Source: Naegleria gruberi
Taxonomy: Eukaryota
Strand: one strand, 5' to 3'
Assembly: GCA_000004985.1 (NCBI GenBank)
Contig: GG738858.1
Length of the DNA stretch: 64,000 nucleotides
Of this stretch, positions 2,770 through 28,395 are shown one piece after another. Both the position numbers and the translations under genes were made by a program. The stretch's first letter is position 1; each line of letters opens with the position of its first letter. The notes beneath the pieces are model-generated. The model ran no database searches and was not told where the DNA came from. It saw only the letters and a list, made by a program, of their open reading frames with translations.

Positions 2770-4563
2770 TTATCTATGCATCAGATTGAGTGTTTCTTCT
2801 ACAATTAGATTTGGACTGGTAAGAGCCATATCAAAATCTGCATCAATTATCTTCCATGCCATTTTGGTGGAATTGTAGTAGGTAGCTAAATCTTGGTGCA
2901 TTGATAAAAAGGCGTTTGCACGTTCTTGTTGATAAATAAGAAAATCATTGCATAGAGCTGTTCCAAAAGAAAGGTAATTGTCCTCGCAAGATCCATAAAG
3001 TAATTTCTTTGATGTGAGTATACTGACTGGAATAATTGTTGAATTTGAAGAATGGAATTGCTGTCTCTTTGCTCTAATATTTATAATATTGCCTGTCGTA
3101 TTTTTCATGTCATCAAGCTCACCCCAAACAGCATTATTGAACTTGTTGATATTTGTTGTATGTTGGTTGTATTTCAGTAAAAGTTGAACAGCTGTTGAAT
3201 TTGGGAAAGATGAAAAATACGTCTTCCAGCCATTCAAGTAATATCGTTCATGGATTGTTCCTAAGGTGGAAGGGAGTTTTTGATAGAAATAATTTGAGAA
3301 ATATCTAGTAAATCCAATAGGTGTTACGAATCTAATGGTATTGGCCATATAGGCTTTCTCTTCTAACATATTGCTTATTTGAGTATCAGTTAAATTATAC
3401 ACACTACCAAGATGATATGTGTCTTGCTTTTCATGAGATGGATGCAACAAGATAACACCCCTCAAGAGTTTTCTGTGATATTCCATGACTGTTCTGGCTG
3501 TGAATGAGGCACTTGAATGTGAAATCAAAATGAATGGTGTTTTGAAAGATGCCTCTTTCACAAGTGCAATCATTTCATTCATTGTTGTATTGCTCAAATC
3601 TCTTGGAAATGGTCCCGAATCGCTGAATCCATATCCTGCTCTCTCAATCACACAAGCTCTCATTCCCTTCTTTGCCAACAGAGTGATTAAACTCTTCATA
3701 TAAGCATATGGTGATGCAACTCCAATATCTGAATCGAGAAGCACTGCATCTTCACTTTCAGAATCTCCTTCACAATACATGTGCATATTCAGTGTTTGAG
3801 CACTCGAGGGTTTAATGCTGTACATGGTTCCAGGGACTTTATATTCATCCTGTGTTATCGAAACTGATTGGACTGTAAACATGATGAATAAGGCACAAAC
3901 TAAAGCCATAAATGTATAGACTAGAAGCTTGATGACTGTTGTAACTCGACAACAAATTCTGGTTCTGAAAAAGCTTTCTTCTCCATACCATTTTTCTTCC
4001 TTCAAATCGAATATTATTGTATTTGATTTTCTAAATTTCTTGAATTGATGATATGCAATTACAAGATATGAAATTGGAGAGATGACAAAAAACAGGCAAA
4101 GCCAACCAGAAAGTCTCTCTCTATTCTCACTATAAAGTCCATAACAAACCCAATTAATCAAACTAGAGATGAAAATAAGTACTCCCCAAAATATTCTCGC
4201 AAAGAGAGCCATGCTATATCCGTCAATATTAATTTGACGAGTTAAATTATCCTTAATAAGTCCTTTCTTTTCAATAAAAGATACAATCCTCTTATACCAT
4301 CTCAATAAAAATAAAGGTCCGAATAGATCAAAAATGAATGTTAATGAAAAAACCATTTGAAATGCACTTGTCCACACAACAGTAGTAGGAGAACCTGCAG
4401 TAAAATATCCTATTTGATCAGAATTACTATTATCCATTGAAATTCCAAACACTACTATGGAGGATAATGCACAAAATAATATTGTTAGAATTGCAACTTT
4501 GTAAATTGCTCCAATTATTCCCTTCTTGGTCTTTTTAGTCTTCTTCTTTGTTGGCTTTTCCAA
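2770..4563 (-). CDS. multi-pass membrane protein with a C-terminal alpha/beta-hydrolase-fold domain (paralog A)
   Basis: 597-aa ORF. The N-terminal ~250 aa contain about 6 hydrophobic helices. The C-terminal half has CVIERAGYGFSD (a D-x-R-G-x-G-x-S-like AB-hydrolase motif) and ILISHSSAS (a nucleophile-elbow-like motif). The first codon is TTG with no in-frame ATG upstream; a possible acceptor lies at ttaatag near 4585, so a small upstream exon or a non-ATG start is possible. Confidence 0.55.
   Translation of the reverse strand: MEKPTKKKTKKTKKGIIGAIYKVAILTILFCALSSIVVFGISMDNSNSDQIGYFTAGSPTTVVWTSAFQMVFSLTFIFDLFGPLFLLRWYKRIVSFIEKKGLIKDNLTRQINIDGYSMALFARIFWGVLIFISSLINWVCYGLYSENRERLSGWLCLFFVISPISYLVIAYHQFKKFRKSNTIIFDLKEEKWYGEESFFRTRICCRVTTVIKLLVYTFMALVCALFIMFTVQSVSITQDEYKVPGTMYSIKPSSAQTLNMHMYCEGDSESEDAVLLDSDIGVASPYAYMKSLITLLAKKGMRACVIERAGYGFSDSGPFPRDLSNTTMNEMIALVKEASFKTPFILISHSSASFTARTVMEYHRKLLRGVILLHPSHEKQDTYHLGSVYNLTDTQISNMLEEKAYMANTIRFVTPIGFTRYFSNYFYQKLPSTLGTIHERYYLNGWKTYFSSFPNSTAVQLLLKYNQHTTNINKFNNAVWGELDDMKNTTGNIINIRAKRQQFHSSNSTIIPVSILTSKKLLYGSCEDNYLSFGTALCNDFLIYQQERANAFLSMHQDLATYYNSTKMAWKIIDADFDMALTSPNLIVEETLNLMHR
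3422..3777. repeat. ~350 bp tract identical to 6327..6682, with a single mismatch (gene-conversion tract within paralog A)
   Basis: Direct comparison of the two plus-strand stretches: cttgcttttcatgagatggatgcaacaagataacacccctcaagag ... ttcactttcagaatctcc is identical in both genes, with one mismatch at 3769/6674. The flanking sequence is only about 40% identical at the protein level. The identical antisense ORFs 3485..3703 and 6390..6608 are by-products of this tract. Confidence 0.85.
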
Positions 4564-5701: not shown

Positions 5702-7570
5702 TCAAAAATCTTGAAGAAAAGGAAGTATTAGTTCGGGATGATGTAAAGCAATATCATAATCCGAGGGGATGTGTTTCCAGGAGACGGAGTAGAGCTTGGG
5801 TTGATTTTTGTAAAAATTGAAGAGATCTTGATGGAGGAGTTGGATGATGAAAGATCTTTGGAATTGTTTTTGGAGGAAATCTTGGCAAATTGATGAACCT
5901 TCTGGAAAGAAATTTTGGCTACAATTTCCATTGAGAAGATAGCTTGATGTGAGGATGATTAGAGGGAGTGGTTTTGTTGAATTGGACATTGTTTGTGGAT
6001 TTTCTCTATTATGGATGATCTGCTTATTATTGAATGGGATGGATTTCAACTCACTCCAAACAGTGTTCGTAAATTTGTTGCTATTGAGAACACTATCGTA
6101 AATTTTCAATAATGTTGAATTAGTGAAAGATGGATAGAAGTACTTTTTCACACCATTCATATAATATCTATCATACCAATTATCCTTTTCATTTTCCTCC
6201 AATAATCCAAAAACTCGAAATATTCCAATAGGAACCAGCATTCTAATGGTATTCACATGGCTTACTTCAGTATTGTAGTGTTCCTCTACTGTTTCATTCT
6301 TGACAAATGTTCTCAGTAATGATTCTTCTTGCTTTTCATGAGATGGATGCAACAAGATAACACCCCTCAAGAGTTTTCTGTGATATTCCATGACTGTTCT
6401 GGCTGTGAATGAGGCACTTGAATGTGAAATCAAAATGAATGGTGTTTTGAAAGATGCCTCTTTCACAAGTGCAATCATTTCATTCATTGTTGTATTGCTC
6501 AAATCTCTTGGAAATGGTCCCGAATCGCTGAATCCATATCCTGCTCTCTCAATCACACAAGCTCTCATTCCCTTCTTTGCCAACAGAGTGATTAAACTCT
6601 TCATATAAGCATATGGTGATGCAACTCCAATATCTGAATCGAGAAGCACTGCATCTTCACTTTCAGAATCTCCCTCACAATATAGATGAAGGTTAATTGT
6701 CTGTGTGTCTTTGGAATATAAGGGCACCTGAACTGTTTGACCTGGCATGCTTTGAATTCCTGCCAAGATAGATACAGCCTGAATAACACAACCTATTAGT
6801 ACCACAATTAGTAGAGTTGTAAATATTAACACTGAAATATGGGCTGCTTTCATGAAGTATTTCATTATGGTTGATCTTTTAGAATACAAAAACAGATAGA
6901 TTTCATGGCAATTTTGTGTCTTTTTGTGCTTATGCTTTCCAAATTTTTCCTCATAGTATTCCTTGACATACCTTCCTTTAACAAACTGGTAATATTTTGT
7001 TAACAAATCAAAGATTACATTACTTACTTGATATACAATCACTAGAATATATGCAATCATTGGAATTAATCCAGAGAATGCAAACCAACCAGTCAATCTA
7101 TCTCTACTCTCCTTTACAGTATATGAAATCCAAATAATGGAAAGCAATAGCATTGTTACAATGGTAATTAATAATTTGATAATTAACATCAGAATAGAAG
7201 TATCCCATGATAGATACATGTAATTTGTATAATTAGTAACAAAAATCTTTTTCCTTTTAATACTAAATCCCATCATACAGCCCATAATTGGTATGAAATA
7301 TGAATCAATAATTAATAATCCAATGTAAAATAGCATTACAATAGAAATCCAAAATATTGTAACTGGTGATCCACTTGTATAAAATCCACTATTCGACACT
7401 ACATTAGCAGCACTAACAGACATTGTAACTATATATGAAATCAAAAAGAATATCAGTGTTATAGTGCTAATTTTGTACAGTGAATGAAAAATCTTCTCCA
7501 CATGTTTGAGTTCACTCGGCTTGGAAACAATTTTTGGACTTGTACTAATTGGAGAACCTTGCATTTCCAT
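5702..7570 (-). CDS. multi-pass membrane protein with a C-terminal alpha/beta-hydrolase-fold domain (paralog B)
   Basis: 622-aa ORF starting at ATG 7570 (MEMQGSPIS...). It has an N-terminal multi-TM region and the same hydrolase block as paralog A, including 136 identical residues. An 80-codon in-frame ORF (7571..7810) lies directly upstream, separated by a single TAA. Confidence 0.6.
   Translation of the reverse strand: MEMQGSPISTSPKIVSKPSELKHVEKIFHSLYKISTITLIFFLISYIVTMSVSAANVVSNSGFYTSGSPVTIFWISIVMLFYIGLLIIDSYFIPIMGCMMGFSIKRKKIFVTNYTNYMYLSWDTSILMLIIKLLITIVTMLLLSIIWISYTVKESRDRLTGWFAFSGLIPMIAYILVIVYQVSNVIFDLLTKYYQFVKGRYVKEYYEEKFGKHKHKKTQNCHEIYLFLYSKRSTIMKYFMKAAHISVLIFTTLLIVVLIGCVIQAVSILAGIQSMPGQTVQVPLYSKDTQTINLHLYCEGDSESEDAVLLDSDIGVASPYAYMKSLITLLAKKGMRACVIERAGYGFSDSGPFPRDLSNTTMNEMIALVKEASFKTPFILISHSSASFTARTVMEYHRKLLRGVILLHPSHEKQEESLLRTFVKNETVEEHYNTEVSHVNTIRMLVPIGIFRVFGLLEENEKDNWYDRYYMNGVKKYFYPSFTNSTLLKIYDSVLNSNKFTNTVWSELKSIPFNNKQIIHNRENPQTMSNSTKPLPLIILTSSYLLNGNCSQNFFPEGSSICQDFLQKQFQRSFIIQLLHQDLFNFYKNQPKLYSVSWKHIPSDYDIALHHPELILPFLQDF
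6327..6682. repeat. gene-conversion tract, copy 2 (identical to 3422..3777)
   Basis: see 3422..3777. Confidence 0.85.
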
Positions 7571-15443: not shown

Positions 15444-15559
15444 TTTCGATAACGAGTGAAACAAGAGTTTCAATAAATATAGCCCGAGTTTAATGTGAAT
15501 AAAATTTGCTTTCAAAGATTTTCAATATTCTTTATATTTATTGTGTTAAGGTAATGAAT

Positions 15560-15680
15560 GGCTACGGCCATATCACGATGAATGCACCTCATCCCGTCCG
15601 ATTTGAGAAGTTAAGCATCGTCGAGCCACATCAGTACTGAGGTTGGAGACAACTTGGGAACCTGTGGTGCTGTAGTCTTT
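15560..15680 (+). rRNA. 5S ribosomal RNA gene, copy 1
   Basis: ggctacggccatatcacgatgaa...ccgtccgatttgagaagttaagcatcgtcgagccacatcagtactgaggttggagacaacttgggaacctgtggtgctgtagtc fits the eukaryotic 5S consensus (GCCATAC-like 5' end, CCGATCTCGTCTGATCTCGGAAG-like core). It is followed by a T5 Pol III terminator. Confidence 0.85.
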
Positions 15681-15790
15681 TTATCACACATTAATTTCGA
15701 TAAATAGATGATTCACAGCACCAAAAAAAAGGAAATTCAACTTTTTCAACACTCATTGGAATTGCTGATTTACAGAGCTCAACAGCCAAT

Positions 15791-16927
15791 TTAGAAACAC
15801 TTTCTATGAACAAAACCTGGACCAGCCTCCTCATATTCCTCTTTCGATATCCACATCTGCTGAAAGGTTGCAAGACTCGCGAGGATACTACCTCCAATCC
15901 AAACTGAATACTTTCTTTCAGGTGGGGCGACAACCTTTATCTTCATTGAGGCTGGTGCCAAAGCAGTCAATTCCTTGGTCATTCTTTCAGCAATACCTTC
16001 GAACATGGTATTACCACCTGACAAGACAACATTTCCATACAATTCCTTTCTAATGTCAATGTCACATTTACCAATTGAGTTGAATGCCATTTCATGAACA
16101 CCAGCAGCCTCCATTTTTTCAACCAAATTAGGTTGGAATAAAACTTCTGGACATCTGAATCGTTCGTTACCAATTGTTATCACATTACCATCTGGTAATT
16201 CGTATAACTTTTCCACGGAGGATGATTCAGCAGCAACTTTCATTTCAGCTTCGAAATCTAAAGCAATATAACAGAGCTTTTCCTTAATACCTCTGACAAC
16301 TTCTCTTTCAGCAGTAGTATTGAATGAGTAACCTCTTTCCATCAAAATATTCATCAAACAATCAGTCAAGTCACGACCAGCCAAATCCAATCTCAAAATG
16401 GCATGTGGCAAGGCATAACCTTCATAAATTGGAACAGTGTGTGAAACACCATCACCAGAATCCAAAACTATACCAGTACTTCTACCAGAAGCATACAATG
16501 ACAAGACAGCTTGAATGGAAACATACATGGCCGGAACTGAGAAGGTTTCAAACATGATTTGACTCATCTTTTCTCTATTTGGCTTTGGATTAAAAGGAGC
16601 TTCAGTCAACAAGACTGGATGTTCCTCAGGAGCAACACATAATTCATTGTAGAAGGTGTGATGCCAGATCTTTTCCATATCATCCCAATTAGTAACAATA
16701 CCGTGCTCAATTGGATACCTTAAAGTCAAGACACCACACTTGTATTGAGCTTCATCACCAACATAGGCATCCTTACCAAACATTCCAATCATGATTGACT
16801 TTTGCTTTGGTCTAGCAACAATTGAGGGAAAGACAGCTCTTGGAGCATCATCACCAGCAAAACCAGCTTTACACATACCAGAACCGTTGTCAACAACGAG
16901 AGTTTGAACGTCTTCATAGAAAGACAT
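15791..16927 (-). CDS. actin (conventional, slightly divergent N-terminus)
   Basis: Translation from ATG 16927 is [40 protein letters not shown]...[40 protein letters not shown]. This is near-identical to canonical actin over about 375 aa. The longer listed ORF (start 16990) adds 21 non-actin residues. Confidence 0.9.
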
Positions 16928-18218: not shown

Positions 18219-18405
18219 TTTTTTTTAATTTATTTTTACAACAGTTTCAATCTTTGTAACCAAACTGTGCAAGAAACACTGGAATTTGAGAGTTTTTAGT
18301 ATTCTTTACAATATAGGTCCAGCCTTGTTTAATATATAACATGAATAAATTTTGCTTTCGGAGATTTTCAATATTCTTTATATTCATTGTATTAAGGTAA
18401 TGAAT

Positions 18406-18526
18406 GGCTACGGCCATATCACGATGAAAGCACCTCATCCCGTCCGATTTGAGAAGTTAAGCATCGTCGAGCCACATCAGTACTGAGGTTGGAGACAACT
18501 TGGGAACCTGTGGTGCTGTAGTCTTT
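18406..18526 (+). rRNA. 5S ribosomal RNA gene, copy 2
   Basis: Differs from copy 1 at one position (gatgaaAgcacc versus gatgaaTgcacc) across 119 nt. It shares about 60 bp of upstream flank with copy 1 (ttttgctttc..agattttcaatattctttatatt.attgt.ttaaggtaatgaatg). T5 terminator follows. Confidence 0.85.
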
Positions 18527-18704
18527 TTAATTAAGTTTTAAGACACATGAATCTTTAAAGTTGTTCATGTAGTCTTTTTGAGGAGAATTTTACTCCCTGT
18601 TCAAAGTATTAACATTTGATATTTGGGCATTTAATTAAAGTAGTACCACAACATCTTTCTCGGCCAATTGGCTTTGATCGAGTGAAGTTTCTGTTCTTTT
18701 CAGT

Positions 18705-19094
18705 TTAATAGCTGAAAGCAGCCCAAGGGTTGCCTCCTCTCAATCTCAATACTAAATGCACAGTTGAGTCCTTTTGAAGATTGTAATCATTAATGGTTCT
18801 GCCATCTTCCAATTGTTTTCCTGCATAAATCAATCGTTGTTGATCTGAAGGAATACCTTCTTTATCAAATATCTTTTGTTTCATATTCTCAACAGTATCA
18901 CTCGATTCCATTTCAATTGTAATTGTCTTTCCAGTTAAGGTTTTTACTTGTTTTCCAGCAAAGATGAGTCTTTGTTGATCTGGTGAAATTCCTTCCTTTT
19001 CTTGAACTTTTCTTTTCACATTTTCAATTGAATCATTAGATTCAACTTCCAAAGTGATTGTTCTACCAATGAGTGTCTTGACGAATAATTGCAT
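18705..19094 (-). pseudogene. ubiquitin-derived ORF with an internal partial duplication or deletion (likely a polyubiquitin remnant)
   Basis: [18 protein letters not shown]...RLIFAGKQV, then the reading restarts at [16 protein letters not shown]...[35 protein letters not shown], followed by NPWAAFSY. That is Ub residues 1-48 fused to Ub residues 6-76 plus an 8-aa tail. The two parts are about 65% identical at the nucleotide level. The ATG overlaps the stop of the upstream actin fragment (TAATG). Confidence 0.55.
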
Positions 19095-20477
19095 TATGTT
19101 TGTTGTTTTTTTTTCTTATTGTTTTTCTTTGAATTCAAAGCATTTCTTTGCATTTTATTCTTGTAAACCTCCATTCCAATAAGATTTGGTTGAAATAATA
19201 TCTCAGTAGTTTTGAATCTTTCATTCCCAAGTGAAATTACATTTCCATCTGGCAATTCTAGACCGTGGGAGGTGAGAAGGATTGACAAATATTTTAAAAA
19301 AAAATTAAGAAGTCACTCAAAAAACAATTTGTTAAAGTCGAGCCGAAGGTTTATTGGACCAAGAGTGAGACAGTGTGTTCAAAGTATCAATTACCACTTG
19401 TTCTTCTAGAAACAAGTACTTCTGGGTTCTTGTACATGAACCTTCGCTTTAATGTACCAACAATTTCAAGTAAATGGGCAGGCACTTATCTAGATGATGT
19501 TTTGGTGAGGTGAATGTAGTAATGGCTGGTGAGGAAGGAAGCAAAGGGAGAACTCTCCTCATGGTGGCTTCTCAAGGTAGCATGCTGAAGGTGGGAATAC
19601 CAACCAATATACCTATTTAGCAGGGTGATGATGAAATCATGATGAGTAATTGTTGTTTGTTGTTTTTTTTTGTTGAATATTTAACGGTCAGAACAGACAA
19701 CTTTCAGCGGTTATTGGTTGGCGCGAAATTACCGTGATGTAACATTTTTTAGCTCACCTCCCTCGGTCTAGGCAATTCATATAAACTTTCTTTCGCTGTT
19801 TCTGCCAAAAAATTACTGGCAACATAACCAGTTTTTTCCTTCATATCCCTGACTAGTTCAGTTTCACCCATCGTGCTGAAATTATATCCTCGTTCCATTA
19901 ACATTTTCTTCAAATAATCTGTCAGGTCTTTGCCTCCTAATTCCAATCTTTTGGTGGCATGTGACAGGGCATATCCTTCATAAACAGGTACTGAATTAGT
20001 GACGCCATCACCTGATTCCAATACTACACCTGTCATTCTACCATTTGCAAATATTGACATGGCACATTGATTTGCCAAACACAAACCTCTCACCTTAAAA
20101 CTTTCAAACATGATTTGTGTCATTTTCACTTTCACATCCTTTGAATTTAGTGGCATTTCCATCAGTAATACTTCATGCTCCTCAGGAGCAACTCTTAACT
20201 CATTGTAAAATGTATGATGCCATATCTTTTCCATATGATACCAATCTGAAATTAATCCACGATCAATTGGATATTTGTAAACATTAATACCCCTCCTACA
20301 CAATGCATAATCTCCAACGTAAGTTTCGATAGAGCCCATTGAAAGGAGGAAGGGTGCTACTTTTCGATGTGAAGTTACTGTGGGAAAGACTGCTCGTGGA
20401 GCATAATCACCAGAAAAACCAGCTTTCATTTGAGAGGAACCATTATCAATGATGAGTGGTGGATTTTCATCAGTCAT
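19094..20477 (-). pseudogene. actin-like gene fragment (residues ~1-275 only), interrupted by a 512 bp TIR element and ending in a K-rich tail
   Basis: ORF 19749..20477 is MTDENPPLIIDNGSSQMKAGFSGDYAPRAVFP...ESLYELP-RPREVS-stop. ORF 19094..19288 is ...[31 protein letters not shown]...KKKKQQT-stop. Removing 19259..19778 restores a continuous [16 protein letters not shown] actin frame. The fragment is about 55-60% identical to actin and lacks the C-terminal ~100 residues. Confidence 0.6.
19259..19770. mobile_element. non-autonomous DNA transposon (MITE-like) with 18 bp terminal inverted repeats and an 8 bp target-site duplication
   Basis: Left end: ggcaattc|tagaccgtgggaggtgag. Right end: ctcacctccctcggtcta|ggcaattc. 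The TIRs are reverse complements with 1 mismatch. A perfect 8-bp direct repeat ggcaattc lies at 19251-19258 and 19771-19778. The interior (about 475 bp) has no ORF. Excision exactly restores the actin reading frame. Confidence 0.6.
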
Positions 20478-20646: not shown

Positions 20647-20851
20647 TTACATACCTTACGAAATCTCACCTTAATTCACCTTAATAACAAATCTCACTCA
20701 ATTCTGGCTAATTTGTATTTATTCAAAGGTATTTATGTTTTTAAAAGCTCCATGAACTTGGCTGGAAATTCAATTAAATGTGGAAACTTCTCTATTTGTT
20801 TCAGATGTGCATTTTCGAAAATGCATCTTTTTTTTCAAATATGAATCACAA

Positions 20852-22060
20852 ATGGACAAAGTTGATGGAAACACAACCAAAAAAATGGATCCACAACTAA
20901 CGTTCAAGGCATACAGCAAGATTGAAAATCATCATCAGGAGAGTTTCGTTTCAAAGTTATTGGAAAAGGAAACTGAAGATTCGGATAAGAAATTGGAATG
21001 GGTTTGCTTGGAGAAAGTGCATGGTAGCAATTTCAGCTTTATTGTTGTTCCTAAAGAAGGATCACAAGATAAAGTTGAAGTATTGAAAGCAAATCGTACC
21101 AATGTTCTTACCATATTAAGTAATTTCTTTGTGGAAGCTCAAAAAGAAGTTTACGAAAGATATTACAAGAGTTGTGTTAAATTATTCGAAATTATTTCTC
21201 AAAATGCAGAAAAATTCAAACGAAAGACTATGGAAACTGAAAGTGAAATTACAAAAATTCACATATTTGGTGAATTATTTGGTGGATACTTTCCAAAATT
21301 GAAAAATGATCAAGATTCGAATGGTATTCGTAAAGCACACATTCAAAAAGGTGTTTACTATTGTCCACATTATGATTTTTACGTATTTGATGTGGCAGTG
21401 ACATTTGGCGACCAAGATACTTGGTTACTTTTCGATGAGGCAGATCCAATTCTTGAAGAAGCAGGATTTAGAGTTAGAGCTAAACCACTTTTTAGAGGTT
21501 CATTGAAGGAATGTTTGGATTTTGATGTGGAAATTAACACGATAATTCCACAAACTTTTTATTCTGACATTTTGACAGAAAATGATATTTTATTTAAGGA
21601 AAAGGAAAATATTTGTGAAGGAGTGGTGATTAAACCTGCTAATGGTACTGTATTTGTCGGATCGAGGGCAATTATTAAGAAGAAGAATTCAAAATTTACT
21701 GAAGTCAATCCTGCCAAAGATAAATCTAAACGAATGAAGAAACAGGAAAAATCTGTGGATCAAGACGAACAAGAAATGATTTCTAATGTGTGGAATGAAA
21801 TTGAGCGATATTTGAATAATAATCGTCTTGATAATGTCGTTTCCAAAGTTGGAAATATTACTAGAGAAAATCTTTCACTTGTTTTGAAGAATTTTGTGAA
21901 CGATGCCATTGAGGATTATGATAAAGATCAACAAGAATTGGGAGAAGAAGGAGCTACCCTATCATCCCTTCCAGTCAACATTCAAAAATCAATCAAGAAG
22001 AAATTGGGATCCACCTGTCAAGCAATTCTTCTAAAATACATGAACGAAAACAAACAATAA
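20852..22060 (+). CDS. Rnl2-family (T4 Rnl2 / kinetoplastid REL-like) RNA ligase with a C-terminal extension
   Basis: First ATG at 20852 (MDKVDGNTTKK...). WVCLEKVHGSNFSF matches nucleotidyltransferase motif I (K-x-H/D-G) of the Rnl2 family (KIHGTN). HIFGELFGGYFP matches the Rnl2 motif III/IV region. YVFDVAV and a K-rich tail follow. The listed ORF start 20780 is GTG. Confidence 0.55.
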   Translation: MDKVDGNTTKKMDPQLTFKAYSKIENHHQESFVSKLLEKETEDSDKKLEWVCLEKVHGSNFSFIVVPKEGSQDKVEVLKANRTNVLTILSNFFVEAQKEVYERYYKSCVKLFEIISQNAEKFKRKTMETESEITKIHIFGELFGGYFPKLKNDQDSNGIRKAHIQKGVYYCPHYDFYVFDVAVTFGDQDTWLLFDEADPILEEAGFRVRAKPLFRGSLKECLDFDVEINTIIPQTFYSDILTENDILFKEKENICEGVVIKPANGTVFVGSRAIIKKKNSKFTEVNPAKDKSKRMKKQEKSVDQDEQEMISNVWNEIERYLNNNRLDNVVSKVGNITRENLSLVLKNFVNDAIEDYDKDQQELGEEGATLSSLPVNIQKSIKKKLGSTCQAILLKYMNENKQ

Positions 22061-27825: not shown

Positions 27826-28395
27826 TTTTTTGGATACTCCTCACTAATTCATGAACTGGAAAGGTGTACTCCCGATAATCGTCAAGATAACAAGAAGATT
27901 CTCTATTCATAACAACCAATTTGGCTATGAAGATAGAAAGTGGTTTCTCCTTGGTTTGGTATCAAAATAAAGTCTCATGCTGATAATACCAATATTAAGT
28001 CTACCAAAATCTTTAAATTTTAAATAGAATATTTTTGGTTCCTTTGGTTGTTGAAATTCTGATTGAAAATGTTTTCTTGTCTTTTCTTCTTGTTAGATTG
28101 TTGTTAGAAAGCAAGTCACCATCCAATCAGCGAGGAAAACATTTGATGTAAAATTTCCAAGTTGGTATTTTGATAATTTTTTTAAAAATAAATTTGATGA
28201 TTTTTTAAATTTAAAAAAAATAGCAAACACCTAGATTGAGTGCGGACGAGTTTTTATTCTTCAAAGATACGGAATCGTCCACTACTGATTGTCATCATCT
28301 TTGGATACTTAGTATACTAGTCAAACTCGAGTAGTAAATAGTTTTTCCTAAACAAGTGAGGAGGATTTGGATATTCTAATATTTAAATCCGTTTA

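Follow-up and report, generated by a model that had tools for sequence, protein, structure and literature searches.

A probable non-autonomous DNA transposon inserted in a truncated, divergent actin gene copy of Naegleria gruberi

What interrupts the reading frame of an actin-family gene on contig GG738858.1 of Naegleria gruberi, and does the interruption record an act of transposition? The gene lies in a 64,000-nucleotide stretch of that contig, here called the window, which is compact, about 34% GC, mostly intronless and read with the standard genetic code. The window holds two 5S rRNA genes, one U2 match and three tRNAs. Of ten open reading frames from it, seven are exact matches to GenBank proteins of N. 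gruberi, all encoded on a single scaffold, among them an actin (EFC46662) and an alpha-tubulin (EFC46543). The open reading frame of the host gene starts at position 20477 on the minus strand. Its 5' part (19779-20477, minus strand; Pfam Actin, 2e-73) encodes residues 1-233 of a divergent actin paralogue up to a set of duplicated ELP codons, and its 3' remnant (19094-19250, minus strand) carries paralogue residues 238-264 followed by an unrelated tail. We propose that what separates the two is very probably a 512-bp copy of a non-autonomous DNA transposon of the cut-and-paste type (class II), inserted in a truncated and divergent actin copy.

The insert occupies positions 19259-19770, has a GC content of 39% and is non-coding. 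It is bracketed by two identical copies of the 8-mer GGCAATTC, one at 19251-19258, which on the sense strand of the actin gene reads GAATTGCC and encodes E-L-P, and the other at 19771-19778. Immediately inside these lie terminal inverted repeats of 18 nt, the left at 19259-19276 on the plus strand (TAGACCGTGGGAGGTGAG) and the right at 19753-19770 on the minus strand (TAGACCGAGGGAGGTGAG in the minus-strand reading), which are complementary at 17 of 18 positions. A first-pass annotation of the locus had described both the flanking 8-mers and the inner 18-mers with their single mismatch, and both were found as it described them.

The boundaries allow a second parse. C19258, just outside the left repeat, is complementary to G19771, just outside the right one, so the same letters can just as validly be parsed as an inverted repeat of 19 bp (beginning CTAG) with a 6-bp duplication (GCAATT), and the repeat search does report 19-nt arms for the insert ends. 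The 8-bp parse needs one coincidence (~1/4); for 6 bp, two bases of the flanks must agree with the ends of the element by chance (~1/16). Counting coincidences in the letters in this way, before any priors, would favour the 8-bp parse by about 4:1.

The effect on the host gene is clear at the level of the reading frame. Deletion of 19259-19778 (520 bp, the insert plus one 8-mer) yields an uninterrupted minus-strand actin frame. The closest relative of the host gene is P0013 (NAEGRDRAFT_29917), a 368-aa N. gruberi protein encoded on another scaffold and 90% identical, which is continuous across the insertion point; over the junction the restored host sequence is identical to it at the protein level. 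Two to three further actins of N. gruberi likewise read through this point without interruption, as YELPDGNVI. The earlier claim that removing the insert and one 8-mer rejoins the actin sequence is thus borne out, with the paralogue as witness. Because both 8-mer copies encode ELP, the tblastn matches of the two gene parts overlap at residues 234-237. As a consequence of the insertion, translation from the actin start enters the inverted repeat for six codons and stops (RPREVS*), and P0012, the 242-aa public model for the gene, does run into the inverted repeat, ending in YELPRPREVS*. A search for near-identical matches to the repaired 287-aa protein, which might have represented an empty-site allele, returned none beyond the reference model and the paralogue. 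The gene model of a further N. gruberi paralogue on another scaffold, P0039 (NAEGRDRAFT_44350), lacks exactly the 25 residues (SNF...LGNE) around the position of the insertion; an intron, a deletion or a further insert might account for this gap.

Such a structure might instead have arisen by chance similarity, as an assembly artefact or as filler DNA from break repair, with no transposition at all. This account draws on the single copy seen and on the surroundings, since the neighbouring 2 kb are a rearranged patchwork of gene fragments (5S, the 5' part of U2, a deleted di-ubiquitin and the truncated actin) that points to a locus with a history of illegitimate joining. The frequency of the repeat structure argues the other way. 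With up to three mismatches allowed, the inverted-repeat motif occurs at only two sites in 64 kb, which are the two ends of the insert, against an expectation of 0.01; shuffled sequence contained 0.01 matches on average, and none of 100 shuffles gave two. When the window was scanned for inverted repeats with flanking duplications, only the insert, of all candidates, had an arm rich in GC (63%), and its duplication was the longest; the other 11 were AT-rich, of low complexity and as frequent in Markov-simulated sequence. A rough calculation (~1.2e8 position pairs, multiplied by 8e-10 for an 18-mer with at most one mismatch and by 1.5e-5 for an identical 8-mer) gives an expectation of ~1e-6 per window for a GC-rich 18-nt repeat with identical 8-mers, found here where the paralogue is continuous. 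Break repair, moreover, makes no inverted repeats with a target duplication, and in this Sanger-era assembly normal, unique sequence spans both junctions, which speaks against an artefact. We therefore consider chance, artefact or filler highly improbable. Elsewhere in the window, a 533-bp intergenic stretch (27834-28366) lies between the arms of an imperfect inverted repeat of 11 nt (TACTCCTCACT / TCCTCCTCACT), with TTTGGA as a direct repeat; this stretch was rejected as a second element, being unrelated to the insert and no more frequent than in simulated sequence.

An alternative that would leave the gene intact takes the insert for a spliceosomal intron derived from a transposon, or for a sequence that behaves as one. 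Introners, which are introns of transposon origin in some algae and other protists, are likewise short, have inverted repeats and a duplication in coding sequence, and end in splice-site-like termini. Maize Ds elements are partly spliced from transcripts. The insert has some of the required signals: on the sense strand one inverted repeat contains a donor-like GAG/GTGAGC, the other end is acceptor-like and pyrimidine-rich (CTCACCTCCCACGGTCTAG/), and eight frame-preserving GT/GC...AG combinations lie near the junctions. None of the eight, however, restores the paralogue sequence, as each either deletes residues or adds 6, and splicing at the GTGAGC...CTAG pair that belongs to the element itself leaves 20 additional nt, a frameshift and a stop after 7 codons. 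Unlike introners, then, splicing here would restore neither frame nor protein, and the other genes of the window showed no family of such inserts. The public annotation leaves the insert unspliced, with P0012 ending inside it, and the host gene is without its last 104 codons in any case. With no GT-AG or GC-AG pair that recovers both the frame and the conserved protein, we reject the intron reading, to which we assign very little probability. Cryptic splicing of the insert in the manner of Ds may occur.

The content of the insert fits a non-autonomous class II element. No open reading frame wholly inside it exceeds 46 aa, and a query of 477 aa, concatenated from all stop-free stretches of at least 22 aa in its six frames, found no protein homologue at E <= 10 among 5.8 billion protein clusters; the proposal that the element is non-autonomous is upheld by both results. 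An Rfam search at a permissive threshold gave no match inside the insert, and a weak snoR31 match spanning the left junction (E = 0.18) fell below threshold and was dismissed. In the predicted single-strand DNA fold both termini are paired (z = -3.7), and since the two sides are unalike beyond the 18-nt ends, the insert is not a foldback element. The motif CGGT/ACCG occurs three times in the right subterminal region (19685-19752), at 19689, 19712 and 19735, 23 nt apart, with a further copy inside the terminal repeat; its density is 9.8 per kb in the insert vs 0.83 per kb in the window (~12-fold). From their placement, these motifs are candidate subterminal repeats for transposase binding. A 42-nt stretch of similarity (79% identical, E = 6e-4) also links 19637-19674 of the insert to 19076-19117, the A-rich leader and first codons of the adjacent ubiquitin open reading frame. 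This likeness may reflect the A-rich leaders that are typical of N. gruberi genes, or it may be a promoter-like remnant in the insert.

To which superfamily does the element belong? No other superfamily supplies nearly as many non-autonomous elements with short repeats and 8-bp duplications as hAT, whose termini commonly begin TAG or CAG. On the strength of the 8-bp duplication and the TAG termini, hAT would be the likeliest assignment, a best guess in which our confidence stands about midway. The features that define hAT families divide on this point. The duplication is of the usual 8 bp (PMC12730594), though the 6-bp parse GCAATT fits the same sequence, and the terminal repeats, at 18 nt, fall within the range of about 10-25 bp. 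Typical hAT families combine 8-bp duplications with YARNG termini (PMC3014272); both ends of the insert read TAGAC, in which Y, A and R fit and position 5 is C, not G. Nor do GGCAATTC / GAATTGCC match either nTnnnnAn (the Ac/hobo type) or nnnTAnnn (the Buster/Charlie type), although the target consensus is a statistical feature for which one insertion carries little weight. Membership in hAT is not established: the length of the duplication (8 bp) and the shortness of the inverted repeats fit, and the YARNG motif and the target consensus do not.

The same deviations lend some support to an origin in another superfamily of DNA transposons, namely Zisupton/KDZ, P, Merlin or Mutator-like, or, under the 6-bp parse that C19258 and G19771 permit, hAT6 or IS3EU. 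Duplications are of 8 bp in Zisupton and of 6 bp in hAT6 and IS3EU (PMC12730594). In the literature searched, MuDRF is the one DNA transposon of N. gruberi that is given a name (PMC3164196). It shares with the insert the host genome, class II membership and inverted repeats; MuDRF differs in being a full-length coding element and in making duplications of 9 bp, not 8. Zisupton/KDZ elements resemble the insert in their inverted repeats and 8-bp duplications and are patchily distributed across eukaryotes, but those described are large and autonomous (PMC12730594), and nothing in the insert is like a KDZ transposase. The heavier demand that the 6-bp parse makes on coincidence (~1/16 vs ~1/4) and the predominance of hAT among elements of this build, with its TAG or CAG starts, further lower the case for a non-hAT source, which we regard as a serious but lesser possibility.

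Within hAT, the nearest likenesses are non-autonomous elements such as maize Ds1 and the hAT-N and hobo-N elements of Anolis (PMC3014272). These too are a few hundred bp long, are without transposase and make 8-bp duplications; they have short repeats (11-18 bp, starting TAG or CAG) and motifs near their ends, and they share insertion in genes and possible partial splicing. The insert departs from them in the fifth terminal base, in an 8-mer outside the hAT consensus, in subterminal motifs at one end only, and in being known here as a single copy.

That single copy bears on the label MITE, which stands for miniature inverted-repeat transposable element. In length (512 bp, below ~800 bp), inverted repeats, target duplication and absence of coding capacity the insert has the features of a MITE. 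Our searches covered the window and the metagenome, viral, prokaryotic and protein collections, and within these sequences the insert is not established as a member of a multi-copy family. The window holds no second copy of the termini at up to three mismatches, and BLASTN of the whole insert against it gave A/T-rich, low-complexity matches only. The matches to the termini in metagenome contigs (14), viral contigs (6) and prokaryotic genomes (17) are all attributable to chance; they share at most 24 nt with the insert, and the contigs are 42-72% GC. No open reading frame of at least 120 aa in the window carries a transposase or reverse-transcriptase domain, in agreement with the earlier view that the insert is the only clear transposable element there.

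The genus Naegleria is regarded as nearly transposon-free. In published surveys, repeats make up ~5% of the Naegleria genome (PMC6125883), transposable elements 0.28% in a recent survey (bioRxiv 10.64898/2026.06.24.734286), and DNA transposons are present at low abundance (PMC6125883, PMC3164196, bioRxiv 10.64898/2026.06.24.734286). Our literature search found no Naegleria hAT or MITE family described. A more ambitious reading places the insert in an undescribed family of Naegleria DNA transposons that was active recently and whose copies in live genes might be tolerated through splicing; in a heterolobosean, this would be transposon-to-intron conversion at an early stage. In either orientation the inverted repeats carry GGTGAG, which resembles a donor site, and a pyrimidine tract with CTAG, which resembles an acceptor, and the 25-residue gap in P0039 might point to a second insert that is spliced over. 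We consider this reading very improbable.

The host gene has suffered a second lesion. It follows P0013 only as far as residue 264 (...NLIGMEV), and residues 265-368 are absent from the window; the missing 3' part, the last 104 codons or the 3' third, is replaced by ubiquitin and U2 fragments. The stop codon of the host remnant overlaps the ATG of the ubiquitin open reading frame (TAATG). The 3' loss is a lesion independent of the insert. Because the host gene carries this separate 3' lesion, the insert cannot date the inactivation of the gene. The first-pass annotation had claimed that it does, and that claim falls, given a missing 3' third with a ubiquitin fragment in its place.

Downstream of the host gene, 18337-19260 is a patchwork of fragments that comprises a 5S gene, a piece of U2, a di-ubiquitin open reading frame and the actin remnant. 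The U2 snRNA piece (18651 to about 18735, plus strand) corresponds to the 5' ~85 nt, without the Sm site and the 3' stem-loops. The di-ubiquitin open reading frame (18705-19094, minus strand) is internally deleted, joining residues 1-48 to residues 5-76, and is 82% identical to canonical ubiquitin; its RGG codons abut the U2 piece in antisense, and the 5S gene follows. The patchwork may have come about through illegitimate recombination, or else through switches of template between abundant RNAs.

Several neighbouring loci deserve mention in their own right. The two 5S rRNA genes (15491-15683 and 18337-18529, each taken with an upstream flank of ~70 nt) show 96% identity, and each lies tail-to-tail with an actin-family gene, one full-length (15791-16927) and the other the truncated host gene (19094-20477). 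As these two actins are mutually only about 56% identical, the 96% identity of the 5S units suggests homogenisation of the 5S genes. Two neighbouring alpha/beta-hydrolase paralogues on the minus strand (2770-4563 and 5702-7570) share a 300-nt block (3422-3721 vs 6327-6626) that is 100% identical, which suggests recent gene conversion between them. The annotated alpha-tubulin EFC46543 (22309-23649) is unusually divergent, with a Pfam Tubulin_C match of only 1e-8, and its gene adjoins one for a T4 Rnl2-type RNA ligase (20780-22060).

Taken with the exact break in actin-family coding sequence, the inverted repeats and the target-site duplication sustain the interpretation of the insert as a cut-and-paste element. 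In the mechanism that we propose, a transposase encoded elsewhere in the genome would act in trans, binding the terminal inverted repeats of 18 bp and, probably, the CGGT repeats that adjoin the right end as well. The element would then have been excised from a donor site and joined to staggered cuts made 8 bp apart at GGCAATTC, and repair of the two single-stranded gaps would have produced the flanking duplication. The insert likely persists since the host copy probably was dead or dispensable, either already or soon after the event, in a compact and transposon-poor genome.

The insertion is a textbook one, ordinary and well formed, and a new instance of a familiar type of element. For annotation of the locus, it corrects a public gene model whose 242-aa protein ends inside the insert, and it flags the host gene as a doubly damaged actin pseudogene. 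For the biology of the organism, it provides one clean case of class II transposition, in a genome that is compact and in which transposons are very scarce. If no other copies exist, its value is that of routine repeat annotation; if they do, the family and its transposase could readily be probed for with the 18-bp termini.
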